Of a stretch of 64,000 nucleotides of DNA, positions 1 to 41,434 are shown piece by piece; within the stretch, counting starts at the first letter, position 1, and the number at the start of each line of letters is the position of its first letter. The stretch covers positions 16,177 to 80,176 of the forward strand of contig CAZJAT010000004.1 of the NCBI GenBank assembly GCA_964544145.1, read 5' to 3'. The notes beneath the pieces are model-generated. The model saw nothing but the letters and a program-made list of their open reading frames with translations, searched no databases and was not told the origin of the DNA. This DNA comes from an uncultured Bacteroidales bacterium (GTDB lineage Bacteria > Hydrothermota > 32-111). A program made the translations under genes and the position numbers.

Positions 1-1
1 T

Positions 2-493
2 CCGCTTCAATCAGGTCAGAAATCATTTGTTACCCCATATCTCACCGATTTGAATGATAATGGTTTTATGGATATTATAACTGTTGGCAGTAATGAATTA
101 TATGTATATGAAATCAATACTGCACACAATCAATTCAATTGGCCTTCATATCATTATAATAATTTTAATAACAGATATTATCCGTTTGCATCACATGCAG
201 CAGTAAATGAAGATTTGATTATTGAAGGCAATAATAATTATATATATCCGAATCCTGCTTCAGATCAGTTTACATTAAGATTTGAGTCAGGCACCGGAGG
301 GTCATATGAAATCAGGATATTTGATGCATCCGGTAATATGAAAAAGCTTATTGACGGAAATGCTGAATCAGGTGTAAATGAAATCCCTGTATATACGCGC
401 GATATGGGCGCAGGATTTTACATATTAAAACTGAAAATCACTTCATCTGATGAAACATATATAAAGACATTCAAATTTGTAGTGAGGAAATAA
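2..493 (+). CDS. 5'-truncated secreted protein with an FG-GAP-like repeat and a C-terminal T9SS (Por) type-A sorting domain
   Basis: The frame is open from nt 2 with no upstream stop, so the gene continues off the window. It contains DLNDNGFMDI (FG-GAP/VCBS-like). The C-terminal motifs IYPNPASDQF, YEIRIFDASGN and GFYILKLKI are typical of TIGR04183-type CTDs. The stop is at 491-493, with a 1-nt TAATG overlap onto the next gene. Confidence 0.55.
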   Translation, partial: PLQSGQKSFVTPYLTDLNDNGFMDIITVGSNELYVYEINTAHNQFNWPSYHYNNFNNRYYPFASHAAVNEDLIIEGNNNYIYPNPASDQFTLRFESGTGGSYEIRIFDASGNMKKLIDGNAESGVNEIPVYTRDMGAGFYILKLKITSSDETYIKTFKFVVRK

Positions 494-1146: not shown

Positions 1147-1523
1147 TGAGCAGAATAGGCACATTTTTCAAGGCATATTGGAAGATTTTTCTATATTTCC
1201 TGGGTGTCTTGCTGCTTATATGGATTGCATTTCTCCTTCATATTGATAAAAGGGTTATCGCTTTTTCTGTTATAATCATCGGATTTATCACACAATTATT
1301 TGCTGAAATTCTGGGTATTGTGGCTCTAATACCTATTTTAGGTCCCGTACTTGTCAAGATAATTTCATTACCATTTATAATCATTATTAATGGTATTGGC
1401 TATATAGTTACTTTTTTTGCATTCAAGAAGGGATACAAGGTTGAAGTGGCAAAATCAAAGATGTTTACTACAGCATTACTGATTGGAATTGTATTAGGTT
1501 TTATATTGGGGAAATTATTATGA
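1146..1523 (+). CDS. small polytopic membrane protein (3-4 predicted TM helices), GTG start
   Basis: The protein is hydrophobic throughout, with a GTG start at 1146. It is coupled to the downstream gene by an ATGA overlap at 1520-1523. Confidence 0.4.
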   Translation: MSRIGTFFKAYWKIFLYFLGVLLLIWIAFLLHIDKRVIAFSVIIIGFITQLFAEILGIVALIPILGPVLVKIISLPFIIIINGIGYIVTFFAFKKGYKVEVAKSKMFTTALLIGIVLGFILGKLL

Positions 1524-4381
1524 AAAAATTATTTATTTTCTTTACAGTACTATTGACCTTTGTTTTAATGAATGCTCAGTCATATTACTTTGGACAAAAC
1601 AAAGTGAATTATACTGCCAAGAAGTGGGAGTATGTAAAGACAGAACATTTTGATATTTATTTTTATCAGGGCAGTCAGAATCTGGTTTCCTTTGCCGCAA
1701 TGGTTGCAGAGTCATCAATAACATATATGGAAAATGTATTCAAATATTCTCTTAAAAACAGGGTGCCCATAATAATATATAAATCTCACAAGGATTTTGA
1801 AGAAACAAATATCACCATTGAAATACTTGATGAGTTTGTCGGAGGTTTTACTGAATCTCTCAAAAACAGAGTTGTTGTACCATTTGACGGTTCATATGCG
1901 GATTTCAGACATGTCATAAATCATGAACTTACACATGCCTTGCAGTTTGATATTCTTTACGGAAAGGGCGGTGCGGGAATAGTAGTAAGCAGCATTTCTT
2001 ATGATATACCCCTTTGGTTTATTGAAGGCAGTGCGGAGTATTTTTCCAGAGAATGGGACAGGGAAACAGATATGTATATGAGGGATGCGGTTTTCAATGA
2101 TGAATTTGTCGATTTGGAGACATTGGGTTATTATTATGGCGGTTATATTATATATAAAGAAGGCCAGGCTGTTCATAAGTATATAGCCGATACATATGGT
2201 GAGCAAAAAATTGTTGCAATATACAGGAGTATTAAAAATACAAGATCATTCAATAAATCATTAAGAGATGTAATAGGCATAGATATCAAGGAACTTGATA
2301 AGGACTTCAAATTATATCTGAAGAAACGATATGCGGCTCTCTATAATACTAAAGATGATGAATTGAAAAACTCAAAATCATTGCTGGGCAAATTCAAGGA
2401 GACATCACCATATAATGTATCCCCCTCATTGTCTCCGGATGGAAATTATGTGGCATTTATTTCTGAAAAATACGGGTTTTTTGACATATATATGATGAGA
2501 ACGGGAAATCCTGAGTATAAATGGAGAATATCTCCGAGAACTCTGATAAGGAATTATGAGAGTTTTCATCTCAAGCAGGGTAATCTCAATTGGTCATCTG
2601 ACAGCAAATGGATGCTATATTCAGTCAGGAATAAGGGTAATGAGAGGATTGCAGTATATGATATTGAAAAGAAAAAGCAGGTACTGACTGTTGATATTAA
2701 AGCTGATGGTCTTTTCTCACCGGTTTGTAATATGGAAAAAACAGAGATTGCATTTACTGTTATGAGAGACGGAAAAACAGATATATCTCTATATGATATA
2801 GAATCCAAAGAAGAAATAAATATTACAAATGACATATATGATGATATTAATCCGCATTTTTACAGAGACCAGATTATCATCTTTTCAAGTACAAGGCCAT
2901 TTGGAGATGATGAATGGGATTATCAGACATACAGATTGTTTGAATACAATTTAAATACAGGGAATATTCGTTTATTGACTGACTCGGAAATGGGAAGCAT
3001 AGTGAATTTCAATTTGTTCCGGGATTCAATGATTGTATTTGAAAGTGATATAACTGATATTTCCAATATATTCACAATGAATATGAATTCAGGAGAGGTG
3101 AAGCAGCTCACTGATGTAATGACAGGTGTTTTTGATCCTTCCATTTCTCAGGATGGCAGCACCATGACAGTGCGTTTTCTGAAGAGTATGGAGATGGATA
3201 TATGTCTTATTACAAATCCTCTAAAAAACAGCAAACCTGTTGATTTCTCGGTAAGCATGCAGGATTATGCCAGAATCTTCTTTCCATATACATATACATC
3301 CATACAGGGAGTGAAACCTCCTCTGAGGATATCATTTGACTGGCTTGCAGGAGCTTTCTCATATTCTCCGGGATACGGATTTATCGGTTTACTTGATGCA
3401 GCTGTCAGTGATATTATGGGGAATAACAGATTATATGTTCAGATGGAAAAGCTTTCAACTACAGGTAATGGATTTATTACAGTTCAATACTGGAATATGA
3501 AAAACAGAATCAATTATGCTCTTATGTATTTGAATCTTCAGTCAGAATATATGGAATATTATTATAATCCCCTTTTATACAGAACCAAAATCAATATATA
3601 TAATGGAGTTGGTGGAATAATTTCTTACCCATTTGATAGATTTAACCGATTTGATTTTGAACTTGATTTTTATGATTATTCTGTTTATACAAATGATGTT
3701 GTCTATGGGTACAGCACAAGGTATAAAAATTATGATTATTTTTCCACTTCAGTTATATGCTCATATGTGCATGATAATACAGTATGGGGATATTATGGAC
3801 CGGTTAATGGTGAAGTGTGGAGAATCGATGTGGGGAATGCATTTATGGGACCCGGCATTACCAACACCCCCTCGCTTGCCTTTATTGCACCTGAATACAG
3901 ATTTACATATATAAATACAGATTTCAGAAAATACATAATTCTGACTTCACGTTCTCAGATTGCATTAAAATTCGCAGGTATATCCTACTTTGGTCCGGAG
4001 TATTATCCCGCTATGCTGGGAGGAACAGGTACTATCAGAGGATATCCTTATGGAATGTATTATGGCCAGAATGTATATTATTCGAACATAGAACTCAGAT
4101 TTCCCTTAATTGACCAAATACGCTTTTCACTACCGGGATTTATTTTCGGCAATATCAGGGGAGTTGTTTTCACGGATTTCGGATTTGCAAAGGATGATTT
4201 AAGCGATTTAAGAATATTTACCGAACAATATGTGCTTGATGATCTGAAAATGGGTTATGGAGCAGGTATAAGGATGGATATATGGTTTGCCATATTGAAG
4301 TTGGATGTTGCAAAACATACAGATTTAAGAACAGCTTCGTCAGATTATTACTGGCATTTGGACTTTGGTGCGGAATTCTGA
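1520..4381 (+). CDS. outer-membrane Omp85-family beta-barrel protein fused to an N-terminal HExxH zinc-metallopeptidase domain and a TolB/PD40-like beta-propeller
   Basis: The signal peptide is MKKLFIFFTVLLTFVLMNAQS. A gluzincin-like HELTHALQFD...EGSAEY motif is present. SPDGNYVAFISEKYGFFDIYMM matches a PD40/TolB repeat. The C-terminus carries Omp85 hallmarks: LGGTGTIRGYPYG (the loop-6 VRGF/Y motif), FTDFG, GYGAGIRMD and a terminal ...DFGAEF. Confidence 0.6.
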   Translation: MKKLFIFFTVLLTFVLMNAQSYYFGQNKVNYTAKKWEYVKTEHFDIYFYQGSQNLVSFAAMVAESSITYMENVFKYSLKNRVPIIIYKSHKDFEETNITIEILDEFVGGFTESLKNRVVVPFDGSYADFRHVINHELTHALQFDILYGKGGAGIVVSSISYDIPLWFIEGSAEYFSREWDRETDMYMRDAVFNDEFVDLETLGYYYGGYIIYKEGQAVHKYIADTYGEQKIVAIYRSIKNTRSFNKSLRDVIGIDIKELDKDFKLYLKKRYAALYNTKDDELKNSKSLLGKFKETSPYNVSPSLSPDGNYVAFISEKYGFFDIYMMRTGNPEYKWRISPRTLIRNYESFHLKQGNLNWSSDSKWMLYSVRNKGNERIAVYDIEKKKQVLTVDIKADGLFSPVCNMEKTEIAFTVMRDGKTDISLYDIESKEEINITNDIYDDINPHFYRDQIIIFSSTRPFGDDEWDYQTYRLFEYNLNTGNIRLLTDSEMGSIVNFNLFRDSMIVFESDITDISNIFTMNMNSGEVKQLTDVMTGVFDPSISQDGSTMTVRFLKSMEMDICLITNPLKNSKPVDFSVSMQDYARIFFPYTYTSIQGVKPPLRISFDWLAGAFSYSPGYGFIGLLDAAVSDIMGNNRLYVQMEKLSTTGNGFITVQYWNMKNRINYALMYLNLQSEYMEYYYNPLLYRTKINIYNGVGGIISYPFDRFNRFDFELDFYDYSVYTNDVVYGYSTRYKNYDYFSTSVICSYVHDNTVWGYYGPVNGEVWRIDVGNAFMGPGITNTPSLAFIAPEYRFTYINTDFRKYIILTSRSQIALKFAGISYFGPEYYPAMLGGTGTIRGYPYGMYYGQNVYYSNIELRFPLIDQIRFSLPGFIFGNIRGVVFTDFGFAKDDLSDLRIFTEQYVLDDLKMGYGAGIRMDIWFAILKLDVAKHTDLRTASSDYYWHLDFGAEF

Positions 4382-7300
4382 CATCTGCATTAATTATTAA
4401 TGCAGACATTATAGACCCTGTTTATCATATTGAGGAAGACGGGAATTATTCCTTTATTCGGGGTGAATATCAATTGATTGCTGAAAGACCGGGTTATCCT
4501 GCAATTCCTGTTATAAGACTGAATTTGAGCAGAGGAAGTGAAATATCATATTTTAAAATCATTGAAACAGATACAATTTTACTTTCATTGCCTTTGGTTC
4601 CCATAGGGGAGTATATTGAGAAAAAGTCTGAATTGCAGAACATATATATACCGGATAAAGAATTGTATATAGAAGACAGGATGCTTATAAGAACTGATTA
4701 CAATGAATATACAATGGGTAAAGGGAAGATTGTTGAGCTATTCCCCTTCAATTACAATCCGTCAGAGAATATGCTGATAGTCAATAAAATAGAGATTCAT
4801 TATTCCTCAATTCCGGCTTTGCCGGAAATCAGTGATAATAATATAGTGATAATATATAATGAGCAATTCAGTGATATCTATGATGAAACAGAGAGTTTTT
4901 TCATTAGGCGCGGAAAGATACCATATATGTACTCAATGACACAGACAGGCAGAACGGCAGACAGTATAGGTATATTTATTGATAGTATTTTCAGTGAAAA
5001 ACCCTTTTCATATCTTCTGCTTATGGGCAGCTCATCAATGCTTCCCGGTAATTGGGGACTGGGCGATGGGAATCCCTATACTGACTTATCATATGCATTG
5101 ATTGATACCCTGGATTATTTACCTGATATTATTTTGTCACGCCTGCCATTTGATTCATCAGCGCAGTTTTTGCATTATTATAATAAAATGGAACAATCAA
5201 TGAATGCAAATGCACTAACAATGAGGGATAATGCATATTTTATGGCTTCAAATGATTACGGATATCACACTTTGGCTGAAAGCACACAGATATATTCAAT
5301 GGAAAAATTCCGTGCAATTGATTATGAAACTGATTCTCTCTTCTATTATTACAATACGGGAACACCTGTTGATGAGGCAATAGATGAGGGGAGAGCCTTA
5401 CTCTTCTATACAGGACATGGATTAACTTATGAATGGAATGGACCCTCATTTGACAGAGATGATATTGATTCTCTGAAGAATGCACCATTTTATCCTTTTA
5501 TATTTTCATTTGCCTGTCTTACCGGCAATTATTATTATGGAGGTTTTTTCGGTAATCACTGGTTGAAATTGGAGGATAAGGGAGCCATTGGTTTTATGGG
5601 GTCATCAAAGGAGACATTTTGGGAACAGGATGATTTATTCCAACGATTCATGGTGGATTCCCTTGTGCAGGGTGACTACATATTTAATGCAGTGAATAAA
5701 GGCAAAATCAATTTCTTTAATTATTATGGTAATTCATCTGTTACGAGAAGATACTTTGAACAATACAATTATTTTGCAGTGCCTGATATATATGTTGGAA
5801 ATACGGATGTGAGTAATATTTCCATATCCGTTGACAGATACATTCCTCTTTCATCAGGTAATATTGACTGCACTATCGGATATGACGGTATTCTTGGGGA
5901 ACCCGGTTTCCTGGTTGTCTGCGGAGATTCACTTATTGACTCATCAAGAATTTCAGCGCAGGGTGAATATATACTCAATCATTCAATCCTATTATCAGAT
6001 ACATTGGCCTTATCACTGTATATTCCGGGGCAGCAGCTGTTTAAAGAGGATATTGTGCTCATTGACAATGGCCCCTTTGTTGCGCTGAAAGACCAATTTA
6101 TTTCGGATATAAAAACAGATACATTGTTTATTGATATGGATATAAAAAATTATGGGAATAATACTGCATATAATATTTCATCCTATATGAAACATTTGCC
6201 CATTTATATGACTGTATTGAATAATAGTATTTACATAGACAGCATGCTTCCGGAATCTATAGAATCGATTGGTGATGCCCTTGTTCTTTTGACAGGCGAT
6301 AATTCGGGCTCCGGAGCAGATACGCTCTGCACTTTAGGTTTTGTTTTTGACTATGACACAGTGTTTTCAGTATTCTCTGTAGCTGATCTTGCGCCCTCAT
6401 TTGATGCGGTATTTATTGAAGCAATATGCACCAATGACACTTCTTCCTCAATAACACTGGGTATTGCAACAGACATTTTTTTCCAAGTCCGTAATACATC
6501 CAAGATAAAAGCAAAAAACATATCAATTACTATAGATGGCGAATTCAATACTGTATATTCTAGCGGGGAATGTGATTCATTACTGTCAATGCAGACATTC
6601 AATCCTGCATTCGGTATTATTGTTGAAGATTCAGAGGATGATGAGGTCATAATAAACATGACTGTCAGTATGGGGTCATATTCTGAAGGGAAAATATTCA
6701 GAATACCTCTTAAACTCAAGAATTCCTATTCATTCATAGGTCCAATGTCCGGTTATTATATCTATACTTCAGATATGATTGACCTTGAAAACAGGCCGGA
6801 ATTCAAGGATATACGAAGCGATTCGTCAGGATGGAGTTTGATTGATGTCAGAGATGATGAAACTGTCAGTTTATCTCTGCCATTCACATTTAAAACAGGG
6901 GATGATTCATTTGATATATTGTACCTGAATGCAAATGGCATTATCTCAACAGATTCAATAGAAAGTTCATTATTCGGGGTTACTGCATTGCCAAACAGCG
7001 GAATAACTGGTAAAGCATTTATTTTCGGATGGCATGACTTCAGATTTCCTGAATTGACATATATATCGGATTATCTTGGGGATCTTAGAGGCAGTGCGCT
7101 CTACAAAATCAATGCATTAAATACGGAATTCCAGATATTGTACAATAGGGTGACAGATTATAATAATGATACATTTACATTTTCAGTATGCATAGATACA
7201 ACAAATATACTGATTAATTTCTATGAAATTCCCTATGATAATAATCTGGTAAATGGGATTCAGTTCAGCAATAGTGAATATATTTCATTCACAGGTGATT

Positions 7301-7674
7301 CATTCTCAGATGTGCAGGGGAATCCGCTGATAAGGGATTCATTCGCAATGATATTCACAAGAGATTTACCTGTTATGATGACAAAATTCAGCAATGAGAA
7401 ATATACAGGCACCCATGCACCTATACTCATGTCGGGAATAATGTACAGACAATCTACAAGTTTCATTATCGGTGTATTTGAACCCGGTATATATGAAATC
7501 AGATTATATGACATAGCAGGCAGATTACAGTCAGAACTTTATTCCGGATTTCTGAACAGAGGTAATATTGTTTTGCCAAATACTGCAGAAACTGATGGTA
7601 TTTATTTTATTACAATGTCAGGTAATAAAGGAACAGTCCTTTCCCGAAAAATCATTATACTGGGTGAGCATTAA
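4282..7674 (+). CDS. C25 (gingipain-like, clan CD) cysteine peptidase with a T9SS C-terminal sorting domain, of PorU-like size
   Basis: The His-Gly/Ala-Cys dyad context is LLFYTGHGLTYEWNG ... FIFSFACLTGNY. The C-terminal CTD motifs are GIYEIRLYDIAGRL and GIYFITMSGNKG...KIIILGEH. An N-terminal Sec-like signal (KTYRFKNSFVRLLLAFGLWCGILTSALIINA) is encoded in a 100-nt out-of-frame overlap with the preceding gene. The next in-frame ATG is at 4681 and would remove that signal. Confidence 0.55.
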   Translation: MVCHIEVGCCKTYRFKNSFVRLLLAFGLWCGILTSALIINADIIDPVYHIEEDGNYSFIRGEYQLIAERPGYPAIPVIRLNLSRGSEISYFKIIETDTILLSLPLVPIGEYIEKKSELQNIYIPDKELYIEDRMLIRTDYNEYTMGKGKIVELFPFNYNPSENMLIVNKIEIHYSSIPALPEISDNNIVIIYNEQFSDIYDETESFFIRRGKIPYMYSMTQTGRTADSIGIFIDSIFSEKPFSYLLLMGSSSMLPGNWGLGDGNPYTDLSYALIDTLDYLPDIILSRLPFDSSAQFLHYYNKMEQSMNANALTMRDNAYFMASNDYGYHTLAESTQIYSMEKFRAIDYETDSLFYYYNTGTPVDEAIDEGRALLFYTGHGLTYEWNGPSFDRDDIDSLKNAPFYPFIFSFACLTGNYYYGGFFGNHWLKLEDKGAIGFMGSSKETFWEQDDLFQRFMVDSLVQGDYIFNAVNKGKINFFNYYGNSSVTRRYFEQYNYFAVPDIYVGNTDVSNISISVDRYIPLSSGNIDCTIGYDGILGEPGFLVVCGDSLIDSSRISAQGEYILNHSILLSDTLALSLYIPGQQLFKEDIVLIDNGPFVALKDQFISDIKTDTLFIDMDIKNYGNNTAYNISSYMKHLPIYMTVLNNSIYIDSMLPESIESIGDALVLLTGDNSGSGADTLCTLGFVFDYDTVFSVFSVADLAPSFDAVFIEAICTNDTSSSITLGIATDIFFQVRNTSKIKAKNISITIDGEFNTVYSSGECDSLLSMQTFNPAFGIIVEDSEDDEVIINMTVSMGSYSEGKIFRIPLKLKNSYSFIGPMSGYYIYTSDMIDLENRPEFKDIRSDSSGWSLIDVRDDETVSLSLPFTFKTGDDSFDILYLNANGIISTDSIESSLFGVTALPNSGITGKAFIFGWHDFRFPELTYISDYLGDLRGSALYKINALNTEFQILYNRVTDYNNDTFTFSVCIDTTNILINFYEIPYDNNLVNGIQFSNSEYISFTGDSFSDVQGNPLIRDSFAMIFTRDLPVMMTKFSNEKYTGTHAPILMSGIMYRQSTSFIIGVFEPGIYEIRLYDIAGRLQSELYSGFLNRGNIVLPNTAETDGIYFITMSGNKGTVLSRKIIILGEH

Positions 7675-7694: not shown

Positions 7695-8687
7695 TCAATT
7701 ATTATCTATATACTCAGTAATCACCAATGTTGCTAAAAGTGCCGTGAATAAAAGGATTGTGACAAAATAAATCCTAAATAAAATAATGATAAACCGGATT
7801 ATATTCAGCGGATAATCAGTGTTCAATGAATTAAACGGATTCTTGATTCTCTCATTGAATAGGTGTTTCTGCTCAAGAAATCTGCTTATTATCAGTCTTT
7901 GATCTTCATTCTCATAATCAGCACATATAGTCAGTATAGAATCATTTAAGTAGTCAGAACAAAATGTAAATATAATGCCATTATAAACTCTTGTAGATGA
8001 AATTATCTTTTTGTCTCTATACAGTGCACCCCTGATCTCATATTCAGGATACATTCCCTGAAGATAGAAAATGCTCTGTTGAAATACCTTTGAATAGGAT
8101 GAGTCAGTCAATAAAATGACAGGTTTATTATTTAATATGAAATATTCATTGTATGGATTCAAATCATTTGCTGTCAAACGGATATGCCTTACTTTACTGC
8201 CTTCAAGCGATATCTGTGTGTCATTCATGCAATAAAAGGAGTCATTATATTCAGTTGTGAGGGTGCAGGGAACAAATGAACCGCTGTAGGTTTTCACAAG
8301 TATCTTTAAAACATTACCATCATAGTAGGCAGTATCAATACCTGTATCATTTTCATTTAAATGGATATCATTAAATCCTCTTTCATCAGAGAAGTGCAGA
8401 AATGAATTTGAAAAAGCAGTATCAGACACAATTAATGTGAATAATGATGAATAACGATTAATAATTATTTTTGATTTCTCATATTTACCAAATGTCTTTG
8501 CATAAGAACCGTGACTGCTGTATGTAATAATGGGACCGCAGTGGTTGGTGTTCATTTCATAAATAATCAGCACAGCAATAATAAGAAAAGAAAACAGGCG
8601 AAGAAAGAATCTCCGCCTGTTTTCTTTTAAATAACTCAGAATAAGTGAAGCAATTATTATAACAGCAATAAAAACATATATTATCAT
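7695..8687 (-). CDS. hypothetical membrane protein (N- and C-terminal TM segments)
   Basis: It is coupled to pckA by an ATGA overlap at 8684-8687. TM segments are present at both ends. No conserved motif was recognised. Confidence 0.4.
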   Translation of the reverse strand: MIIYVFIAVIIIASLILSYLKENRRRFFLRLFSFLIIAVLIIYEMNTNHCGPIITYSSHGSYAKTFGKYEKSKIIINRYSSLFTLIVSDTAFSNSFLHFSDERGFNDIHLNENDTGIDTAYYDGNVLKILVKTYSGSFVPCTLTTEYNDSFYCMNDTQISLEGSKVRHIRLTANDLNPYNEYFILNNKPVILLTDSSYSKVFQQSIFYLQGMYPEYEIRGALYRDKKIISSTRVYNGIIFTFCSDYLNDSILTICADYENEDQRLIISRFLEQKHLFNERIKNPFNSLNTDYPLNIIRFIIILFRIYFVTILLFTALLATLVITEYIDNN

Positions 8688-17095: not shown

Positions 17096-18502
17096 ATGAG
17101 AAAAATATATATTTTTCTATTATTTATTACTGCATATATTACTGTATTAGCTCAATGGTCTTCCATCAGAACTGTATGGTTTTATGCAAATGCATATTTT
17201 CCTCCGACATCAACTCATGTTGCAGGTGTGGATACTTCAGGTAATACATATCTTGTCTGGCATGACCATATATTTGAGTTTGAATTTGATATTGTGCAGC
17301 ATAAGTTTAATGGTACAAGCTGGTCAGGCTGGCAGAGAGTAGATGATGCATTATCCGGTCAGGGATATTACGGACTTTCGAGAATGCCGTCTATCTCAGT
17401 AGAACCTGATGGTAAACGTCTGATTGTCTGGGAGGATATGAAAACAGGATATTTTGAATTACATTCCAAATATTACAATAACATTGATATACCTTCCCAG
17501 AGGCAATTGACTGACGACAGTGCTTATACTTGGTATCCTAAATTACAGTATGCAGATAACAGGCATCATCTCTTCTATATAGACAGTAAAAGCGGAGTAT
17601 TTAATATTTATTACAATTATTATGATTCATTATGGCATAATGAAGAGCATGTGATTGCAGTAGATAGTGCATGTAATGATTTCTCATTCTATGCTTACAA
17701 TGATTCAACAATGGTGCTTTCTTTTCTGATGAAACCTTATGAATATGACAATCTCTATTATTCAGTTAAATCAAATGGCATATGGAATACGCTGCATCCC
17801 CTGTTCACAGGGAATTTTGATGTAACTTATCCGAATATAATAAGTAATAGCACCAACACGTTTATTCTGTTTACTGCTAATATTAATGGTCTTTATCAGC
17901 TTTTCATGTCAAAATTCAATGGAATATCATGGTCAATGCCGGAGCTGATAAGCAATAATGAGACAAATATCATGCATCCTACAGGTATTATCAATGGCAA
18001 TGATTTTCACATATTTTTCATTTCAGATGAATTCCCTAATGGTATTATCAAACATTCTGTTTATGATATTATCAGTGACAGTATTGTAAGCACAGAAACA
18101 GCAGTGGAGGTGAGAGAGGGACCGATATATTCACCCAAAGTTGTTATTGATTCAAATGGCAATCTTCAGCTGATGTTCACATGTGCTGATGGCGAAAGGA
18201 CTTCAAACAGGGGGCCGAACAATATCTATCATCTTACTCTGAGCGGAGTTAAGAGCAATATTACTGAAACTGTTAAACCATATGCTTTGAGCAATTATGG
18301 GAATTATTATAGTATATCAATGACAGATGATAATGATTACTCTATAAGCATACTTGATAAGACGGGCAGATGCATTGCTGATATGCCGGGTGATAAGAGA
18401 CTGATACTTGATAATAGTTATTTTAAACGCAATGATATATATTTTCTGATAATAAAAACTAATAAAAACATTTACACTGAAAAGGTCTTATGGTTAAACT
18501 GA
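17096..18502 (+). CDS. secreted Trp/Tyr-rich beta-propeller-like protein with a T9SS CTD-like C-terminus
   Basis: The signal peptide is MRKIYIFLLFITAYITVLAQ. Repeated NG(T/I)SWS, GIWNT elements are BNR/propeller-like. The C-terminal SISILDKTGRCI and IYFLIIKT...KVLWLN look like CTD motifs D and E. Confidence 0.45.
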   Translation: MRKIYIFLLFITAYITVLAQWSSIRTVWFYANAYFPPTSTHVAGVDTSGNTYLVWHDHIFEFEFDIVQHKFNGTSWSGWQRVDDALSGQGYYGLSRMPSISVEPDGKRLIVWEDMKTGYFELHSKYYNNIDIPSQRQLTDDSAYTWYPKLQYADNRHHLFYIDSKSGVFNIYYNYYDSLWHNEEHVIAVDSACNDFSFYAYNDSTMVLSFLMKPYEYDNLYYSVKSNGIWNTLHPLFTGNFDVTYPNIISNSTNTFILFTANINGLYQLFMSKFNGISWSMPELISNNETNIMHPTGIINGNDFHIFFISDEFPNGIIKHSVYDIISDSIVSTETAVEVREGPIYSPKVVIDSNGNLQLMFTCADGERTSNRGPNNIYHLTLSGVKSNITETVKPYALSNYGNYYSISMTDDNDYSISILDKTGRCIADMPGDKRLILDNSYFKRNDIYFLIIKTNKNIYTEKVLWLN

Positions 18503-21500
18503 GAATATCCTTACTGATTTTTGCTGTTGTCTATTTGAGTGTAATGGCAGATTTTTCAATTATCAGCAATGAAGGCAATAATATCTCTGTTTTTTACAAT
18601 GGTATTTACAGTGAAGGCGGGAAAGCAATAATATTGCCTCCGAATGATAATTATTCAATCTCCGTATCTCCATCAAATGCATTTGATAAAAATCAGTATA
18701 GAGCAATTTATTCAGGTGATATGCATTTGCTGCCTCTTCCACAGACTGATGAGGCATACACAATTAGTGTAAATTATGATAATACAAGGGTGTTTGGAAA
18801 GAGGATTATTCCTGAAAGCGATATAATGTCTTCATTTTCAGACATAATTATTAATAGTGAGAATATTGCGGAGTTTATCAAACCGAGAACGCCTATTCAT
18901 TTTAAAGCTTCATATACAGGATTGCCTGTATTGAAAATGAGGATAGACAGTAGTGGAATATACAGGGTATATTACAGTCAGCTCAATGCTGTGACTGATA
19001 TTGAGCTTTCAGGGATTAACCCGCGAAACATACAGCTGTTTTGCAAGAATAAGGAAATACCTTTATATATTAGCAATATTGCTGATTCTTCATTTAATGC
19101 AGGTGATTTCATTGAATTCTTTGCAGAGAGGAATGATGGAGAAGGATACCGTTATTTTGATAAATACAATATTGAAAATGTATATATACTTACAGTGGAA
19201 GGAAATCCGGGTTCCAGATATGTTCAATTCACATCAACCATTTCACATGACTCATTGATAGCAGCGAATATAGAATCTCATTACAGAACAGTTCATGTTG
19301 AAGCAGACAGTTTCTTCTACAGATTCCAGACAGTATCTGCGGATACCAGTGATTTTTGGTTTGACAGATATATGAATGACCCGAACACATATGATATAAA
19401 TATTGATTTAAATGACAGAATTGCGGACAGTCCTTTAATATTGACATCATATTTACATGGTGTATCCCATTTGGGTATAAACCCTGACCATCCGCTTGAT
19501 ATATATATGAATGACAGCATCATAGAATCAATCAATTGGAATGACCAATTGCCTTATTATTATAAGAGTGATTCCATTGTTCTTCCGGATACAAATGAGA
19601 TATGTGTAACATATCATGTGAAATCAATTCCGGGAGATACATCAAGCAGTGATTCCCTTCTGTTCAATGATATAATGCTTAATTGGACAGAATTGACATA
19701 TGAGAGGGCATTGAGGCCTGAAAACGGTTATCTGGTTTTTTCAATGGATCCGAGAGAAGGATATGGCAGATTCAGATTCCGGATTACGGGTTTTGCCAAT
19801 AGCAATGTTGAAATTCTACGAAAAGACTTAAAGAGAATTATCGGTTTCAATGTATTATATGATACACTTACATTTACATATACTGTAATCTTTGAGGATG
19901 ATATATATACCACGGGTGTTCAATATGGTGTTTATGAAAGATCAAATTTGCATACACCCGATGAAATTGAAAGATATGAATATGCAGATTTAGCATCATC
20001 GCTGAATAGGGGTAAATTTGTTATTATATGTCCTCAGGAATTAAAAGAGGAATCTGCTGAGATAGCCAATCTATTTGATGAGGATGTTTTTATTGCCGGA
20101 ACGGAAGATATCTATAATGAATTCTCAGATGGATTTGTACGTCCATCGGGAATAAGGGATTTCCTTCGTGCGGCATATAATAATTGGGAAATAGCTCCGA
20201 CACATGTTCTTCTGCTTGGGGATGCTTCCAGAGACCAGAATAATCATTTAAACAAAAAACAGTATTATATACCTAATGGATATGTATACGGTCTAGTGGA
20301 TTTCGGCTATTCATGCTCAGATAACTATTATGGCAGAGTAGTGGGTGAGGATGTACTTGAAGATATCTCTGTATCAAGATATCCGGTTAAAACAATAAAT
20401 GATATTTATAATCTCAAATCAAAAATTATTCACTACACAGATCCTCGAAATATGGGTACGCATTATCTGAGAGCTTTAATGGTCTATGACACCACAGAAT
20501 ACATACGCAGTGAAAATGATTCAAAAACGCTGGGAAGTATGCTGCCTTTTTATCTCTATCCCAAATATATGCACACATTCCAAAGCTGGGGCCCCGATTT
20601 TATTCCGGAACTGTATAAAGGTGCATTTGTAATGAATGTGCTTGCACATGGAGCAATACGTTCAATTGGCTATGGAATGTATTTGAGGATTTTTGATGTA
20701 TATAGATATAACAACATATCCCGTCTGCCGCTTGTCAATGTTTTTTCATGCAATACAACGGAATTTGATTTTGTTGCTCCAGATACTATATCAATAGGTG
20801 AAGCATTTGCAACTGCTCCAGGCGGAGGCGCTATTGGATATTACGGAGCAACCGGGACATCAGAAGCAGGTGTCAATTTTGTTTTATCCAGAGCGATATT
20901 CAGACAGTTTACTGAAAAGGGATTGAAAAATATTGGTGATATTCTCCGTATAGGGGAAACAGAATTTTTCCTTGAAGCCAGCAATAATAATCCATACAAT
21001 TTTTTATATTATAGGTCTCAGGAGATAATGAATTATAATCTCCTTGGCATTGGTTTTCTTGATCTCAATATTCCCAAACCTTCAAATGATGAACTGTTAT
21101 TATCAAGTGAAGACCTGGGAGCCGGGGATACTCTGACTGTAGAACTCAATTCTCAGCATATTCAAAATGGCAATATGGAAAGTATAATTCTGGATATTGA
21201 CAAAAACGCTATTTCACATAATCACAGCGAGATATTTGATTCTACCGGGACAAACAATCTTATAATGCCTGATACAGTTAATATCGGTTCAATGACAGTA
21301 TTGACAGTTTCATCATCATCAGACACATCATTATTACAATATGCTTTTCCCTCTATAGGACGTGTCGGCATGTCAACTTTCGGTATGCTGCCTGCTGAAC
21401 CGGATACAAGTAGCAGATTTATTATATATGCAAAGATCAAGAATGCAGGTGCGCTTACAGAGCAGTATGCATATTATAAAAAGGAAACAGCAGGAAATTA

Positions 21501-22977
21501 TACATTTGTTTTACTGAAAAGGGATTCCAGTGATACAACCATGTTCAAATCAGATTCATTGGGACCGCTGACAGCCGGCTCATCAGATTATAAATTTCTT
21601 TATTATATATCAATGAAAGACAGCACCAGCAATATAATAAATTCTGCTAAAAAATATTATTTAGTGAAATCCCTTCCTGATTTCGGATTGAAGACAAACT
21701 CATTGGAGATAAATTCTGTAAACAGAACACCGGTAATTGAATATTATATTGAAAACTTCAGGGGCCTTTCCATACCGGGATTTGCGGTTGAGTTTTATGA
21801 AATCGGCACAGATTCAGCTATCATAACCATTGATTCTATTGCCGGTATAAATGAAATACTTTCAAAGAATTATGCTACTCTTAATGAAGATGTCTATTTA
21901 AATGATTTTACTGTGACAATGGATATCTATAATCAAATCAATGAAGCTGCTGAAGATAATAATAAAATAGTATTTGAAAATTATGACCATCTGATTATTT
22001 TAATCGATGATGATGTTGAAGATAAAAATCCGGATTTTCATCTATTGTCAGCTGATATTGAAGACAGATTCAGTAATCTTGGGTCTTTCTTATGTTTTTC
22101 AAGGAATGAATTCACTGATTCATTAAGCACTATGAAGATGTTTTCTGAAAGTGATGGAAATGTATATGAATATAATATTTTTAATGGCGATACAGTAAAA
22201 TGTGATATTAATCTCTCATTTAATGATTCCACGCTTAATGATGAAGATTATAATTTATATGCTTATGATTTTAATGACAGTGTTTATGTGAAGGTATCTG
22301 ATATTCTGGATTATGTGAATGTAAGTCTTAACACCGGTCTTAATAAGTTTACAATTGCAGATCACACAGATTCATTATCACCATATATAGCAATACTGAT
22401 TGAAAACAGTGATTATGTGGGCAATGTAATATTATCCGAAGAATGTGAATTATCATTTGTTATTGAGGATGAGAGCGGAGTAAGACCGGATGATATAACT
22501 ATCATTCTAAATAATGATACATTGACGCGGGGTGAATATTCAATATCAGAGAACACTGATATCAGAAATATTCCAATACAGATGACCAAAAACCTTGATG
22601 ACGGGATATATGATATTACTGTTATCGCAAAGGATATTTACAGTAATGAAAGCACTGAAATAATGGAGTTTAAAGTTGCTCAGACATTTGCAATACTGTC
22701 TGCAGCAAATTTCCCCAATCCTGTTTCAGGCTCATCCACTGTTTTAGCCTGCAGGCTGACTGAAAATGCAGATGAATTAATATTTCATTTATTTGATTCA
22801 TCAGGCAGAAAAATAAGACAACAATCATTTATTCCGGGTAGCGATAATATTTTCACATATGATTTTGATGTTTCAAATTTATCAAATGGAACGTATTTAT
22901 ATTACTTTGAAGCATATAAGAATGGCGGCAGTGAAAAAGTTAAATCAAAGATTCAGAAAATGAGTGTGCTTAAATGA
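18490..22977 (+). CDS. 1495-aa C25-like (clan CD) peptidase-domain protein with a T9SS CTD, a PorU-like candidate
   Basis: The signal peptide is MVKLRISLLIFAVVYLSVMA. The His-Gly/Ser-Cys dyad context is MNVLAHGAIRS ... LVNVFSCNTTEFD. The C-terminal region FPNPVSGSSTV...IFHLFDSSGRKI...GTYLYYFEAY is a classic type-A CTD. Confidence 0.55.
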   Translation: MVKLRISLLIFAVVYLSVMADFSIISNEGNNISVFYNGIYSEGGKAIILPPNDNYSISVSPSNAFDKNQYRAIYSGDMHLLPLPQTDEAYTISVNYDNTRVFGKRIIPESDIMSSFSDIIINSENIAEFIKPRTPIHFKASYTGLPVLKMRIDSSGIYRVYYSQLNAVTDIELSGINPRNIQLFCKNKEIPLYISNIADSSFNAGDFIEFFAERNDGEGYRYFDKYNIENVYILTVEGNPGSRYVQFTSTISHDSLIAANIESHYRTVHVEADSFFYRFQTVSADTSDFWFDRYMNDPNTYDINIDLNDRIADSPLILTSYLHGVSHLGINPDHPLDIYMNDSIIESINWNDQLPYYYKSDSIVLPDTNEICVTYHVKSIPGDTSSSDSLLFNDIMLNWTELTYERALRPENGYLVFSMDPREGYGRFRFRITGFANSNVEILRKDLKRIIGFNVLYDTLTFTYTVIFEDDIYTTGVQYGVYERSNLHTPDEIERYEYADLASSLNRGKFVIICPQELKEESAEIANLFDEDVFIAGTEDIYNEFSDGFVRPSGIRDFLRAAYNNWEIAPTHVLLLGDASRDQNNHLNKKQYYIPNGYVYGLVDFGYSCSDNYYGRVVGEDVLEDISVSRYPVKTINDIYNLKSKIIHYTDPRNMGTHYLRALMVYDTTEYIRSENDSKTLGSMLPFYLYPKYMHTFQSWGPDFIPELYKGAFVMNVLAHGAIRSIGYGMYLRIFDVYRYNNISRLPLVNVFSCNTTEFDFVAPDTISIGEAFATAPGGGAIGYYGATGTSEAGVNFVLSRAIFRQFTEKGLKNIGDILRIGETEFFLEASNNNPYNFLYYRSQEIMNYNLLGIGFLDLNIPKPSNDELLLSSEDLGAGDTLTVELNSQHIQNGNMESIILDIDKNAISHNHSEIFDSTGTNNLIMPDTVNIGSMTVLTVSSSSDTSLLQYAFPSIGRVGMSTFGMLPAEPDTSSRFIIYAKIKNAGALTEQYAYYKKETAGNYTFVLLKRDSSDTTMFKSDSLGPLTAGSSDYKFLYYISMKDSTSNIINSAKKYYLVKSLPDFGLKTNSLEINSVNRTPVIEYYIENFRGLSIPGFAVEFYEIGTDSAIITIDSIAGINEILSKNYATLNEDVYLNDFTVTMDIYNQINEAAEDNNKIVFENYDHLIILIDDDVEDKNPDFHLLSADIEDRFSNLGSFLCFSRNEFTDSLSTMKMFSESDGNVYEYNIFNGDTVKCDINLSFNDSTLNDEDYNLYAYDFNDSVYVKVSDILDYVNVSLNTGLNKFTIADHTDSLSPYIAILIENSDYVGNVILSEECELSFVIEDESGVRPDDITIILNNDTLTRGEYSISENTDIRNIPIQMTKNLDDGIYDITVIAKDIYSNESTEIMEFKVAQTFAILSAANFPNPVSGSSTVLACRLTENADELIFHLFDSSGRKIRQQSFIPGSDNIFTYDFDVSNLSNGTYLYYFEAYKNGGSEKVKSKIQKMSVLK

Positions 22978-23939
22978 AAAATATTTTTATAATTTTAATC
23001 ATATGTCCTATATTTTTATTCAGTACAGAATCTTTTCTGGATATTTACATGTTTTCATCAGGGGAAGCAAATGCAGGGAACACTTTCTCAAGCACAGGCG
23101 ATTATATTGCAGTAAATAACCCTGCGGGTAATTTGAATGTGATGACATTTAAAATGCTCTATGAACATAAATTCCTTATGGATAATATCAGCTCATACAA
23201 TGCAGCATCAGTAACAATACCTATATTCAATACTATAAGTACAGGTATCTCTTATATAAATCAGAATATTGATAATATACCCATTTACGGCGAATATCCG
23301 GGTAATCCGGATTCACTGGATTTTGAACCGCTTGGTTATTTCAGTGATAATGCTCATGCATTTTATTTCAATATTGCTTATACTTATGTGCCATCACTAT
23401 ATACAGTATATGAATTGGCAGTGGGAACAAATATAAAATATATATATCATAATATTTATAATAATACCGGAATGGGTTCAGGATTTGATATTGCAGCAGA
23501 TTTACTGCTGTATATGAATAGAATAAATTATAAATGGATTGGATTAATGGACTTTTTCATAATAATGCAGGATGTGGGAACAACCGAAATTAAATGGAAT
23601 ACACTTAGTGAAAATATTGACCAGAGAGGGTATCAACTAGTAACAGGTATAGGATATTCACTGCCTGTTGATGTGCTAAAAACAGAGTTTAATACAGAAG
23701 TGAATGCTAAATACGGAAGGAACAATGGAATGGGCGCTGCGATAAGTATGAATTATAACAATATGGCAGGTATAACTACAGGAATCAATTATGAGGAAGG
23801 ATTGAACAATTACTCATTTAGTGAACCGCGAGCCGGTGTTTTTATTCTATTCTCGGGATTTGAGGTGCATTACAGCATATCATCATCAGAATTAGGTTTG
23901 AATCATTCAGTAACAGTTGGTTATTCATATGATAAATAA
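22974..23939 (+). CDS. predicted outer-membrane beta-barrel protein coupled to the upstream CTD peptidase (PorV/PorP-like candidate)
   Basis: An ATGA overlap at 22974-22977 couples it to the upstream gene. It has a signal peptide and alternating hydrophobic and Tyr-rich strands. The N-terminal GEANAGNTFSSTGDYIAVNNPAG is reminiscent of the PorV N-terminal NPA region, which I recall only vaguely. Confidence 0.35.
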   Translation: MKNIFIILIICPIFLFSTESFLDIYMFSSGEANAGNTFSSTGDYIAVNNPAGNLNVMTFKMLYEHKFLMDNISSYNAASVTIPIFNTISTGISYINQNIDNIPIYGEYPGNPDSLDFEPLGYFSDNAHAFYFNIAYTYVPSLYTVYELAVGTNIKYIYHNIYNNTGMGSGFDIAADLLLYMNRINYKWIGLMDFFIIMQDVGTTEIKWNTLSENIDQRGYQLVTGIGYSLPVDVLKTEFNTEVNAKYGRNNGMGAAISMNYNNMAGITTGINYEEGLNNYSFSEPRAGVFILFSGFEVHYSISSSELGLNHSVTVGYSYDK

Positions 23940-31697: not shown

Positions 31698-32834
31698 TTA
31701 ATCAATGGCTCTTCTGAGAAAAGCCGGTGTATCTAAATCAGATGATTTTGCTTTTGACCTCTTATAACCCATATCGGGATTATCATTATCAAATATAATA
31801 TGTTCATCATTTTTTATACTATCGGTTTTTGCATTGAAAAGATCCAATGCCTCAGTATTCTCGAGAACCGGTTCTCTGTCTCGGTTAATGCCTGTTGCAA
31901 CAAGTGTAATTTTGATTTCATCATCAAGATTCTCATCAATTATGGCGCCAAAGATAACTTCTGTCTCTTCGCCTGTTCTTTCCCGGATAACCTCCATACT
32001 TTCATTGATATCGCTGATTGATAAATTTGAAGGACCGGTTATTGTTGCGAGCATTGCAGATGCACCTTCGACTGAACTGTCTTCAAGAATAGGACAATCA
32101 AGAGCAATCTGAGCAGCGCTTGCGCCGCGTGATTCACCTTTAGCATATCCCATTCCAATAACTGCATCGCCTCTGAATGACATCACAGTCTGTACATCAG
32201 CGAAATCCCTGTTGATAAGACCGGGAGTAATGATGATATCTGAAATACCCTTTGCAGCTTTATAGAGTATATTGTCGGCTTCTTCAAATACCTTTGTTAA
32301 TGGTGTGCTTCCTTCGCTTATCTCAACAAGCTTTTCATTGGGTATAATAAGTGTTGTATCAGCCATATCCTTAAGCAGATCAATACCTTCCTGAGCTTGT
32401 TTCATCCTTCTCTTACCCTCAAAATGGAAGGGTTTGGTTATGATCGCAACTGTAAGAATACCGAGTTCTTTTGCAACTTCAGCAATAACCGGTGAAGCAC
32501 CGGTTCCTGTACCGCCGCCCATTCCTGCTGTTATAAAAAGCATATCAGTACCTTCAAGATATTCCTTTATCTCATCCTTGCTTTCTTCTGCTGATTTTTT
32601 ACCCTTATCAGGATTTCCTCCAACCCCTAATCCGCTTGCAACGGATTTTCCTAATTGAATTCTCTGGCTTGCTTTTGATACTGACAGAATTTGCAGATCA
32701 GTATTTGCAGCAACAAAATCGACTCCTTTAAAACCATAAGATATCATTCTGTTGACTGCATTGCCGCCTGCTCCGCCGACGCCGATTATCTTGATCCTTG
32801 CAGGCTGTATCGCATCTTTTACTGGAATAAACAT
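31698..32834 (-). CDS. ftsZ: cell division GTPase FtsZ
   Basis: [18 protein letters not shown] and the tubulin signature GGGTGTG are present. Confidence 0.9.
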
Positions 32835-32847
32835 TTGTCTCCCCCTT

Positions 32848-34098
32848 TTATAAATTAAATAAATCTTTTATTGATTTCATCATTTTACCGAATGTATCTC
32901 GTGCATTTGTATTATTTGCTTTCTGCATTATTCTCGGTTTTTTCATCATATCATGTACATAAACAACCATACCTGTAGCAACTGCAAATGAAGGATCATA
33001 GATATTGTCGGCAAGACCTGACAATTTTCTGGGATATCCTATCTTGACAGGTATATCGAGATGTTTCTCAGATAATTCTCTCAATCCCTTCAATGATGCA
33101 GTACCGCCTGTGAGTACAATGCCTGTATTGAGTTTATCATAGAGCATTGATTTATGCAGGCTGTCTTTAATCAAGTCCAGCATTTCCAGAACACGCGGCT
33201 GCACTATGTCTATAATTTGATCCATAGTAACCTTTCTGTCTTCTCTGTCATGTATGCCGGGAATAATTATCTCACCTGATGTATCATTAAAATCCTTTAT
33301 GCAGTTTGCATATTCGGTTTTGATCCTTTCAGCATCTTCTTTGGGTGTTCTCAAACCGATTGATAAATCCTGAGTAATATTGTCTCCTCCGATTTTTATT
33401 GTATCAACATAACGCAGAGAATCATTATAAAAAACAGATACCTTAATTGTTCCTCCTCCGATATCTACCAATGCAACACCCAATTCCTTTTCTTCAGAAT
33501 CAAGGACCGAATTATATGCAGCAACATGCTGTACAATAAAATCTTCATAATTATAACCTGCCCTGTCAATTGCGCTGCTGAAGTTCTGAATGGTAATATT
33601 GGGAACAGCAATAATGAGTGTTTCTGTTTGCAGTTTATTGCCTGTTAGGCCGACAGGATTCTTAATGTCAGGCTGCTCATCAACAGTATATGATACAGGC
33701 AGTATGTGAAGTATATTGTCATCCATATTTGTTGATGTCTTTGTCTGCTCAATAACCCTCAGCACATCATTATGAGAGATTCCGCCCGAATTTGAAATAA
33801 CTACCATACCTGTCGCTGTAAAACCAAGCACATTTTCTCCCCCAATGCTGGCATAGAGAGGAAGATTCTTCACCCCTGCCATCAACTCTGCTTCGGCAAC
33901 AGATCGTTTAACAGCTGATATTGTAGTATCAATATCCACAATATTGCTCTTCCTGAGTCCTGTATTTTTAACTCTGGAAAAACCGATTATATTAAGCTGG
34001 CCATTTTCTTCTTCCTTAGCTATTAATGTTTTGATAGTGCTTGTTCCAATATCAATAACAGCAATTGTCATAACACCTTCCTTGTTATTTTTTAACAA
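32848..34098 (-). CDS. ftsA: cell division protein FtsA
   Basis: It has the actin-like ATPase start VIDIGTSTIKTLIA and sits just upstream of ftsZ. Confidence 0.85.
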   Translation of the reverse strand: MLKNNKEGVMTIAVIDIGTSTIKTLIAKEEENGQLNIIGFSRVKNTGLRKSNIVDIDTTISAVKRSVAEAELMAGVKNLPLYASIGGENVLGFTATGMVVISNSGGISHNDVLRVIEQTKTSTNMDDNILHILPVSYTVDEQPDIKNPVGLTGNKLQTETLIIAVPNITIQNFSSAIDRAGYNYEDFIVQHVAAYNSVLDSEEKELGVALVDIGGGTIKVSVFYNDSLRYVDTIKIGGDNITQDLSIGLRTPKEDAERIKTEYANCIKDFNDTSGEIIIPGIHDREDRKVTMDQIIDIVQPRVLEMLDLIKDSLHKSMLYDKLNTGIVLTGGTASLKGLRELSEKHLDIPVKIGYPRKLSGLADNIYDPSFAVATGMVVYVHDMMKKPRIMQKANNTNARDTFGKMMKSIKDLFNL

Positions 34099-34738
34099 AT
34101 ATCGAATTTCTAAATCTTACATCAACATATTTAAAATCACCTTCCAGCTGATCTATAGGAGGTAAAATATTACCCGGTTTCAGTATAATTGTGATTCCAT
34201 TATATGTATAAACTGTATATTTATTCTTTTTAAAATTGATTTTTTTAATACTTGATTTCTGGTTGATCAAACTATTGAAAATAGTTGCAAAACCCGGGAT
34301 ATCAAATGCTGTTTTATAATTATTATTATCAGTATACATATGTATAATACTAGCATCGCTCTTTATGGGTTTCATGGAAAAATCCTGATAGACAGTATAT
34401 TTATCATTCACTGAGATAACCGGTATTTTCTTATATAGAATTATTTTAATATTTGACGGGTATTCCCTGATAACAGAACGCAGTCCATAATGTGAATACT
34501 CTGCTGCAATGATACTGTCAATAACCCTTTCTTTTACAGAGAGGATATGTGTGCCCAGGAAACAGTCAAATATATTGAATGGAACAATATCAGGATTATT
34601 TGATATTACAACTGTGACATTTGATACCTTGAACATACTGCTTGATCTGACAAAGATAACCGCACTGATAACAATAAATACAGTTATGGCTGATATTACA
34701 CAGAAACGGATAAATACCTCATTCAGTTTTTTTCTCAT
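34085..34738 (-). CDS. ftsQ: cell division protein FtsQ/DivIB-like (N-terminal TM plus POTRA)
   Basis: A basic N-terminus is followed by the TM segment FIRFCVISAITVFIVISAVIFV. It lies between murB and ftsA. The longest ORF reaches 34900 and would overlap murB by 100 nt. The internal ATG at 34738 is the more likely start. Confidence 0.5.
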   Translation of the reverse strand: MRKKLNEVFIRFCVISAITVFIVISAVIFVRSSSMFKVSNVTVVISNNPDIVPFNIFDCFLGTHILSVKERVIDSIIAAEYSHYGLRSVIREYPSNIKIILYKKIPVISVNDKYTVYQDFSMKPIKSDASIIHMYTDNNNYKTAFDIPGFATIFNSLINQKSSIKKINFKKNKYTVYTYNGITIILKPGNILPPIDQLEGDFKYVDVRFRNSIFVKK

Positions 34739-34799
34739 TTTTTTCTTACTTTTTTTGCTGTGTCTCTGCTGCCTGTAGAGTATTTCAGTATGATTTGAA

Positions 34800-40360: not shown

Positions 40361-40361
40361 T

Positions 40362-41432: not shown

Positions 41433-41434
41433 AA

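Follow-up and report, generated by a model that had tools for sequence, protein, structure and literature searches.

In the window analysed here, a stretch of 64,000 nucleotides from contig CAZJAT010000004.1 of an uncultured bacterium (assembly GCA_964544145.1), the complete gene at 1520-4381 on the forward strand encodes a protein of 953 residues in which a predicted zinc metallopeptidase of the gluzincin type, a six-bladed TolB-like propeller, and a 16-stranded Omp85-type beta-barrel follow each other in a single chain. By its architecture and by the template families that it shares with the known members, this protein belongs to the WD40-like subfamily of the Omp85 superfamily. On balance, and by analogy with the barrel-anchored lipase PlpD, we lean toward the view that it works as a zinc metallopeptidase anchored in the outer membrane, facing the periplasm and gated by its propeller, with a general role in the cell envelope.

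The Omp85 superfamily is central to the building of bacterial and organellar outer membranes, and the members of known function, as far as we are aware, all insert proteins, translocate them, or, in the recent case of PlpD, anchor an enzyme. The WD40-like subfamily, with its peptidase domain, is large, comprising thousands of sequence clusters from many uncultured phyla, and is regarded in the literature as an intriguing but uncharacterised target. The protein described here adds to it a probable WOR-3 member whose active site is intact and whose three domains are modelled with confidence. It opens no new category, and its value is that of a clear example, with a hypothesis that can be tested, for a large, conserved orphan family. 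In this family, the universal conservation of the active site, together with the absence of fixed gene partners, speaks for an enzyme that works autonomously at the outer membrane.

Domain organisation and predicted structure

The gene was read from the list of open reading frames (ORFs) and its translation, with the stop codon at 4379-4381, and its product is identical to a protein in public assemblies (P0001). All the coordinates given for its parts are on the forward strand. The chain opens with a putative Sec-type signal peptide at residues 1-20 (MKKLFIFFTVLLTFVLMNAQ; 1520-1579), read from the sequence with an inferred cleavage site, and residues 1-22 were modelled as an N-terminal helix of low confidence (pLDDT<50). 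The gluzincin (clan MA) zinc-metallopeptidase domain follows at residues ~24-276 (1589-2347), where the Pfam family Peptidase_MA_2 matches residues 74-268 with E=2.7e-11, exceeding its gathering score. This domain holds the HELTH zinc-binding and catalytic motif at residues 135-139 (H135, E136, and H139; 1922-1936) and the conserved segment LWFIEGSAE at residues 165-173 (2012-2038), which resembles the WLNEGFA motif of M1 peptidases and contains E169, the presumed third zinc ligand according to what is known of gluzincins.

The six-bladed TolB-like PD40 propeller occupies residues ~285-565 (2372-3214). On the 953-residue protein, the Pfam model PD40 again exceeds its gathering score (E=9.8e-11), Tricorn_N and Tricorn_2nd matches are precomputed in Pfam, and TolB-type propeller models of NCBIfam match at 8.8e-22, under their curated cut-off. 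A linker of 38 residues (566-603; 3215-3328), modelled with a pLDDT of 82-92, joins the propeller to the Omp85-type barrel at residues 604-953 (3329-4378). An earlier note on this DNA had proposed an N-terminal HExxH...E gluzincin with PD40 repeats, which is borne out by Pfam; the 800 residues that it allotted to this region are too many, since the barrel begins near residue 604 and the non-barrel part is therefore of about 600 residues. The Omp85 hallmarks that the same note had listed for the C-terminus are all in place, namely LGGTGTIRGY at 833-842, FTDFG at 884-888, GYGAGIRMD at 912-920, and a terminal aromatic, which is a Phe. The first of these contains the lid motif of loop 6 (L6), GGTGTIRGY, at residues 834-842 (4019-4045). 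In addition, the NCBIfam model Omp85_fam matches residues 831-932 at 4.6e-8, with 32.9 bits against a cut-off of 200.

The full-length AlphaFold2 model, computed from an input alignment of 66 sequences, reached a mean pLDDT of 86.4 and a pTM of 0.85, and it consists of an alpha/beta peptidase domain, a propeller with a six-blade strand pattern, the linker, and 16 beta-strands between residues 604 and 949, so that domain and structure prediction together confirm the combination of peptidase, propeller, and 16-stranded barrel. Long loops follow the modelled strands 7, 9, 11, 13, and 15, and the loop after strand 11, of 26 residues, carries the RGY motif. In this model, the barrel topology is the canonical one of Omp85, with L6 between strands 11 and 12, and neither that of FadL nor that of a TonB-dependent transporter. 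The N-terminus of strand 1 is periplasmic in such a topology, which would place the preceding domains on the periplasmic side. No POTRA domain was found in the Pfam and NCBIfam scans of the protein, nor as a beta-alpha-alpha-beta-beta unit in the model; a 16-stranded Omp85 barrel without POTRA is thus what both the scans and the model give, and this architecture, as the note had held, is not that of BamA, TamA, or TpsB.

Searched against the Protein Data Bank (PDB) with Foldseek, the full-length model had TolB as its top match (4e-11), followed by BamA, FhaC, and Toc75. The family profile, compared with the PDB sequences, aligned with the barrel of Fusobacterium nucleatum BamA from end to end (3e-15), and also with TolB (2e-19) and E. 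coli BamA (1e-5). The sequence profile of the peptidase domain gave only a marginal match among the PDB sequences (0.045), and a fold search was therefore needed to place this domain. Modelled separately (pLDDT 78), the N-terminal domain lies closest to the peptidase domains of clostridial and Vibrio M9 collagenases (4ar9 at 3e-5, with TM-scores up to 0.61), and it is also near 4ar1 and the catalytic domains of the M1 aminopeptidases IRAP, APN, ERAP, and tricorn factor F3. The HExxH motif, the downstream Glu, and the modelled M9/M1-like fold are the features of the gluzincin clan MA(E), and catalysis is predicted from them.

Homologues and conservation of the active site

The architecture of this protein is not a product of chance, given that it has thousands of full-length homologues. 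With a word-indexed search, 1,370 proteins were obtained at E≤1e-5, the best 120 of which were almost all full length. An exhaustive search with the profile, run on 1.84 billion cluster representatives (clusters at 50% identity), yielded 6,339 at E≤1e-30, and the first 150 of these are all of 770-1190 residues and aligned over the whole profile. Many homologues carry a precomputed PF01103 (Omp85) match alongside PF13485, PF07676, and Tricorn_N/Tricorn_2nd. Among the GTDB species genomes, relatives are encoded at no fewer than 574 loci, and the carriers comprise WOR-3, Stahlbacteria, Zixibacteria, Ignavibacteria, Calditrichota, Marinimicrobia, KSB1, metagenome-assembled genomes (MAGs) of Bacteroidota, Poribacteria, and others. 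The carriers are mainly of the Fibrobacterota-Chlorobiota-Bacteroidota (FCB) group and Poribacteria.

Conservation was counted in an alignment of 66 homologues with identities of 30-69%. The zinc-binding and catalytic residues H135, E136, and H139 are invariant there (66/66), as are E169 and E173, the neighbouring L165, W166, and G170, and the stretch G108-G109-F110 ahead of the HExxH helix. The HExxH...E site is retained in every phylum inspected, including Poribacteria, Ignavibacteria, and Marinimicrobia, and this agrees with what the reading of the protein as a peptidase had implied. A loss of HExxH in Poribacteria, hinted at by a strict regular expression, was rejected, as the alignment shows YHELIH and WFIEGMAD intact in these sequences.

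The barrel is conserved to a similar extent. In L6, G834 is kept in 61/66, G835 in 65/66, R840 in 62/66, G841 in 64/66, and Y or F842 in 65/66 homologues. The motifs I839-R840-G841-Y842, F884-x-D886-x-G888, and G914...R918 are kept in 62-66 of the 66, E858 and R860 of the barrel are invariant or almost so, and the C-terminal residue is aromatic in 65. The protein encoded at 1520-4381 represents the shorter form of the family (~925-955 residues), without an insertion in L6. A longer form (~1030-1090 residues) has 35-45 additional residues in L6 just before the RG(Y/A/S) motif, and it was observed in Ignavibacteria, Marinimicrobia, Calditrichota, and Zixibacteria (L008, L011, L033, L041, and L071).

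The WD40-like subfamily and related systems

The combination of domains is not a new architecture and had been described before. The Omp85/TpsB superfamily was split by Heinz and Lithgow (2014, PMC4104836) into ten subfamilies, one of which is named “WD40-Omp85” or “WD40-like”. The main text of that work reports the TolB-like propeller of the WD40-like proteins and proposes a fusion resembling BamA with BamB, and its Table S2 gives the architectures with PF01103 and PF07676. The peptidase appears in Table S3, where about 100 members are listed with their best BamA/TamA templates (4k3b/4c00), their best TolB templates (2w8b/2ivz), and a “best aminopeptidase hit”, the peptidase templates being 1z5h, 4kxd, 3qnf, 4ar1, 4ar9, and 4fgm. 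A 2024 paper restates that the subfamily has “divergent WD40 and peptidase domains” (PMC11358297), and Hanson et al. (2024, PMC11116518) state that it is not characterised.

The protein of the window has all the parts of a WD40-like Omp85, that is, a barrel without POTRA, a TolB-like PD40 propeller, and a gluzincin domain in front of it, and the template families found for it are the same as those in Table S3. Full-length homologues with 28-35% identity occur in an Ignavibacterium album MAG (L071), in Caldithrix (L041), and in Cloacimonas (P0013), so that taxa of Table S3 also hold relatives of the window's protein. The 2014 sample did not include the WOR-3 lineage from which our protein most likely comes, and the operon setting with cargo of the type IX secretion system (T9SS) is a feature of the window's clade.

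PlpD (the patatin-like or PL-Omp85 type), the one fusion of an Omp85 barrel with an enzyme that has been studied by experiment, likewise has an N-terminal enzyme on a 16-stranded Omp85 barrel. Its enzyme domain is not secreted; it stays in the periplasm, with the barrel as its scaffold (PMC11116518). PlpD differs in being a lipase and not a peptidase, in having one POTRA and no propeller, and in forming a homodimer. BamA and TamA have five and three POTRA domains, respectively, whereas the barrel of the 1520-4381 protein is preceded by the 38-residue linker and the propeller, and neither the genes of partner lipoproteins nor TamB are conserved beside its gene. The TpsB proteins of the FhaC type are marked by a plug helix at the N-terminus, by two POTRA domains, and by a TpsA gene beside their own; here, there is no POTRA, and the neighbours are of the T9SS type with its C-terminal sorting domain (CTD) and not TpsA. 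TolB shares the propeller, but its N-terminal alpha/beta domain is absent from our protein, in which the propeller is instead fused to the peptidase and the barrel, and no tol-pal genes are adjacent.

Some further likenesses are of function only. BepA is an HExxH zinc protease of family M48 that acts on the inner side of the outer membrane, and in tricorn and the DPP-IV/S9 peptidases a PD40 propeller in front of the peptidase limits access to unfolded chains. The peptidases of these systems are M48 or serine enzymes, whereas that of the 1520-4381 protein is of clan MA (Peptidase_MA_2, M9/M1-like), and a relationship in sequence was seen for the propeller repeats only.

Proposed function and alternatives

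We infer the periplasmic location, the gating by the propeller, the substrates, and the physiological role of this protein as follows. It would be exported by Sec, and its barrel would be inserted by the BAM machinery of the cell, with which the C-terminal aromatic beta-signal is consistent, so that the N-terminal 580 residues would remain in the periplasm, anchored at the outer membrane by the barrel. The propeller would serve as a gate or as a substrate-binding platform, as in tricorn, in the DPP-IV-type peptidases, and in TolB, and unfolded polypeptides or oligopeptides would be admitted to the HExxH...E site and cleaved beside the membrane. By analogy with tricorn, the S9-type peptidases, and BepA, such chains near the outer membrane would be the likeliest substrates. 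The role would be a general envelope function, for example the turnover or quality control of proteins or peptides at the outer membrane, conserved vertically over the FCB group and some other phyla, and not that of a device dedicated to adjacent T9SS cargo. Enzyme domains in the periplasm are supported by the barrel topology and by the precedent of PlpD, and true catalysis by the HExxH...E site, which is intact throughout the family. That the family is spread widely and for the most part vertically, with no fixed neighbours, favours an autonomous function in the envelope.

Several points weigh against this proposal and should be kept in mind. The Omp85 model PF01103 gave no match to the protein even at E≤10 with the C-terminal 366 residues scanned alone, and the assignment of the barrel rests for this reason on the profile, the structure, and the motifs. 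PlpD has a POTRA and our protein has none, which makes the analogy imperfect. A literature search for functional studies of the WD40-like subfamily gave only the classification paper and passing mentions. Many genomes hold several paralogues, recognisable by repeated organism-code accessions in Table S3 (PMC4104836), and multiple paralogues fit substrate-specialised roles better than a single housekeeping role. Lastly, the tight coupling with two secreted proteases in the window's clade could be a real functional link.

It is possible, although we think it unlikely, that the barrel is instead an active Omp85 insertase, with the propeller as a built-in scaffold of the BamB kind and the peptidase in charge of quality control of stalled substrates, the whole working as a second barrel assembly factor. 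The structural hallmarks of functional Omp85 barrels are all kept (RGY in L6, FxDxG, and a last strand that is short and holds a conserved Gly), but Omp85 proteins with a mere anchoring role for an enzyme, such as PlpD, conserve these motifs too. The idea of a BamA-BamB fusion was put forward in PMC4104836, whereas the propeller is six-bladed and TolB-like, and not eight-bladed as in BamB. BepA offers a case of a periplasmic HExxH protease at BAM (PMC8423444). TamB is close by in Ignavibacteria, where the adjacent gene likely encodes a BamB-like PQQ propeller; these neighbours are, however, specific to the lineage, the adjacent gene is convergent, and RNase R stands between TamB and the homologue. 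At least one POTRA is present in every characterised Omp85 insertase, and here there is none.

More doubtful still is a form of self-contained quality control of outer-membrane proteins, in which the seam of the barrel between strand 1 and strand 16 would capture the beta-signal of stalled or misassembled barrels and pass these on to the protein's own gated peptidase. If true, this would be a single-polypeptide counterpart of BAM plus BepA, and in the WOR-3 clade of the window such a device would also share its operon with a conserved membrane partner of 125 residues and with two proteases secreted by T9SS.

Gene neighbourhood and the T9SS

As the earlier note had stated, the gene belongs to a tightly coupled string flanked by proteins with a T9SS CTD and by a C25 peptidase. 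The string is headed at 1-493 (forward strand) by the 3' end of the gene of an M6-like T9SS cargo of ~1045 residues, an FG-GAP/beta-propeller protein with a CTD (Por_Secre_tail, 3.2e-10), whose gene is present at full length in the loci L081-L084. This protein matches NF052323, “T9SS-dependent M6-like inactivated metalloprotease” (1.4e-15), and in view of that model it may be a non-catalytic surface protein. Next on the forward strand, in the same coupled string, stand a gene for a protein of 217 residues that has a hydrophobic segment at its N-terminus and fits no known family (493-1146), whose position is conserved only in the close clade, and another for a polytopic membrane protein of 125 residues with four hydrophobic segments and no family match (1146-1523). 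The junctions TAATG (493), TAGTG (1146), and ATGA (1520), the last being that of the 125-residue ORF with the Omp85 gene, indicate tight translational coupling.

Downstream, also on the forward strand, lies the gene of a C25-family cysteine peptidase of 1130 residues with a T9SS CTD (4282-7674; Peptidase_C25 at 6.2e-35, TIGR04183 with 25.7 bits against a cut-off of 23). It probably starts at the ATG at 4282, so that its first 100 nt lie inside the Omp85 gene, at the 3' end; this start is favoured because it alone gives a signal peptide (…KNSFVRLLLAFGLWCGILTSALIINA), while the public gene call starts at 4474 and hence lacks one. Homologous pairs of C25 and Omp85 genes overlap by 31-55 nt. On the PorU model, this C25 protein scores 21 bits against a cut-off of 420, and with such a low score and a CTD it looks like cargo and not like the sortase. 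A convergent ORF of 330 residues (7695-8687, reverse strand), with hydrophobic segments at both its N- and C-terminus and no family match, follows and is kept in position in the close clade.

The string is common to the contig of the window and to relatives whose Omp85 proteins are 67%, 52%, and 49% identical, in the order M6-like CTD protein, ORF of ~215 residues, ORF of 125-165 residues, Omp85 gene, C25, convergent ORF of ~325 residues, and PEPCK. Since the unrelated, convergent PEPCK gene is conserved just as well, this synteny may reflect only close relatedness and is not evidence of function. A conserved synteny with the C25 gene, whose survey the earlier note had proposed, is confined to close relatives (≥49% identity).

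The distant context was sampled at 80 loci from other lineages, whose proteins are 27-35% identical to ours, within 10 kb around each. Neither phmmer nor a hidden Markov model (HMM) built from four C25 sequences and applied at E≤0.01 found a C25 gene in any of these 80 loci, and of the neighbour proteins of the window only the 125-residue ORF recurred by phmmer, in two loci. In both of these, the homologue of this ORF is directly upstream of the Omp85 homologue (L001:8983-9459, 1.3e-14; L004:9573-10001, 5.6e-17) and the remaining neighbours differ from those of the window, so the small membrane protein may be a lineage-specific partner of the Omp85 protein; a hydrophobicity screen for small membrane ORFs upstream of homologues in other phyla found none. 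All-against-all clustering gave no neighbour family in more than 15 of the 80 loci. The families that do recur are lineage-specific and of the housekeeping kind (RNase R, RadA, TGT, UPF0182, prephenate dehydratase, a metallophosphoesterase, and an EPSP-synthase-family enzyme), a CTD was found in only 2 of 63 downstream neighbours, and no CTD or C25 family was among the 25 commonest families of 58 upstream neighbours. At other WOR-3 loci, the flanking genes encode DnaE, a YifB-like ATPase, an asparaginase, a GGDEF protein, or an M23 peptidase.

These data bear directly on the suggestion of the earlier note that the gene belongs to a module for assembly or processing at the outer membrane that serves the T9SS cargo encoded beside it. 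A dedicated module of this kind, which might for example mature or insert the M6-like and C25 proteins, we hold to be quite improbable. It would agree with the coupling of the gene to those of two CTD-bearing proteases and two small membrane proteins, with the gene order held in relatives down to 49% identity, and with the concentration of the family in the phyla of the FCB group, where T9SS occurs. Against it stand the equal synteny of PEPCK in the same relatives, the varied distant neighbours, including those in WOR-3 itself, and the occurrence of the family in Poribacteria too. We also count against it the accession codes of Table S3 that we take to be from Myxococcota, Geobacter, and Vibrio, presumably lacking T9SS. 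Moreover, no NCBIfam model of T9SS matches the 953-residue protein, as would be expected of a component of the PorU, PorV, PorQ, or PorZ type, no conserved linkage to such genes was found across lineages, and the PorU/PorV-like candidates of the window itself are encoded elsewhere, 14 kb away from the 1520-4381 region. The operon context keeps a link to T9SS alive locally, in the clade of the window, and not for the family as a whole, for which we retain the propeller-gated periplasmic peptidase as the favoured explanation.

Equally hard to credit is a self-export of the type V kind, in which the barrel would move the peptidase and propeller to the cell surface as a nutrient-acquiring protease beside those of T9SS: it was the original model for PlpD, mentioned in PMC4104836, and would suit the grouping of the gene with two secreted proteases in this clade, but export was overturned experimentally for PlpD, whose enzyme domain is periplasmic (PMC11116518), the modelled topology sets the N-terminus of strand 1 in the periplasm, and no precedent is known in which a closed Omp85 barrel lets through ~580 residues with a six-bladed propeller among them.

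Further observations

In eight loci of the Ignavibacteria type (L009, L018, L052, L058, L062, L064, L071, and L079), RNase R precedes the homologue, with a TamB-like gene further upstream, and a convergent gene, likely for a BamB-like PQQ propeller, follows it. The PQQ_2 model matches 7 of 63 downstream neighbours, whose loci are not named in that count, and the eight loci were chosen by their convergent downstream ORF of ~470 residues, two of them lying outside the scan. This neighbourhood is lineage-specific, yet it contains genes of envelope biogenesis.

In the window, the best candidate for PorU is a second C25 protein of 1495 residues (18490-22977, forward strand; NF033707 at 9e-59, 199 bits). 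Its gene is followed by an overlapping one, for a protein of 321 residues with a weak PorV2 match (6.9e-8), the pair spanning 18490-23939 on the forward strand. The two C25 proteins of the window showed no significant similarity to each other in a pairwise BLAST comparison. A run of glycosyltransferase genes lies at 15.9-31.6 kb of the window, and on the reverse strand, at 31698-45948, there is a cluster for cell division and cell wall (dcw) that encodes FtsZ and FtsA as well as a class B penicillin-binding protein.

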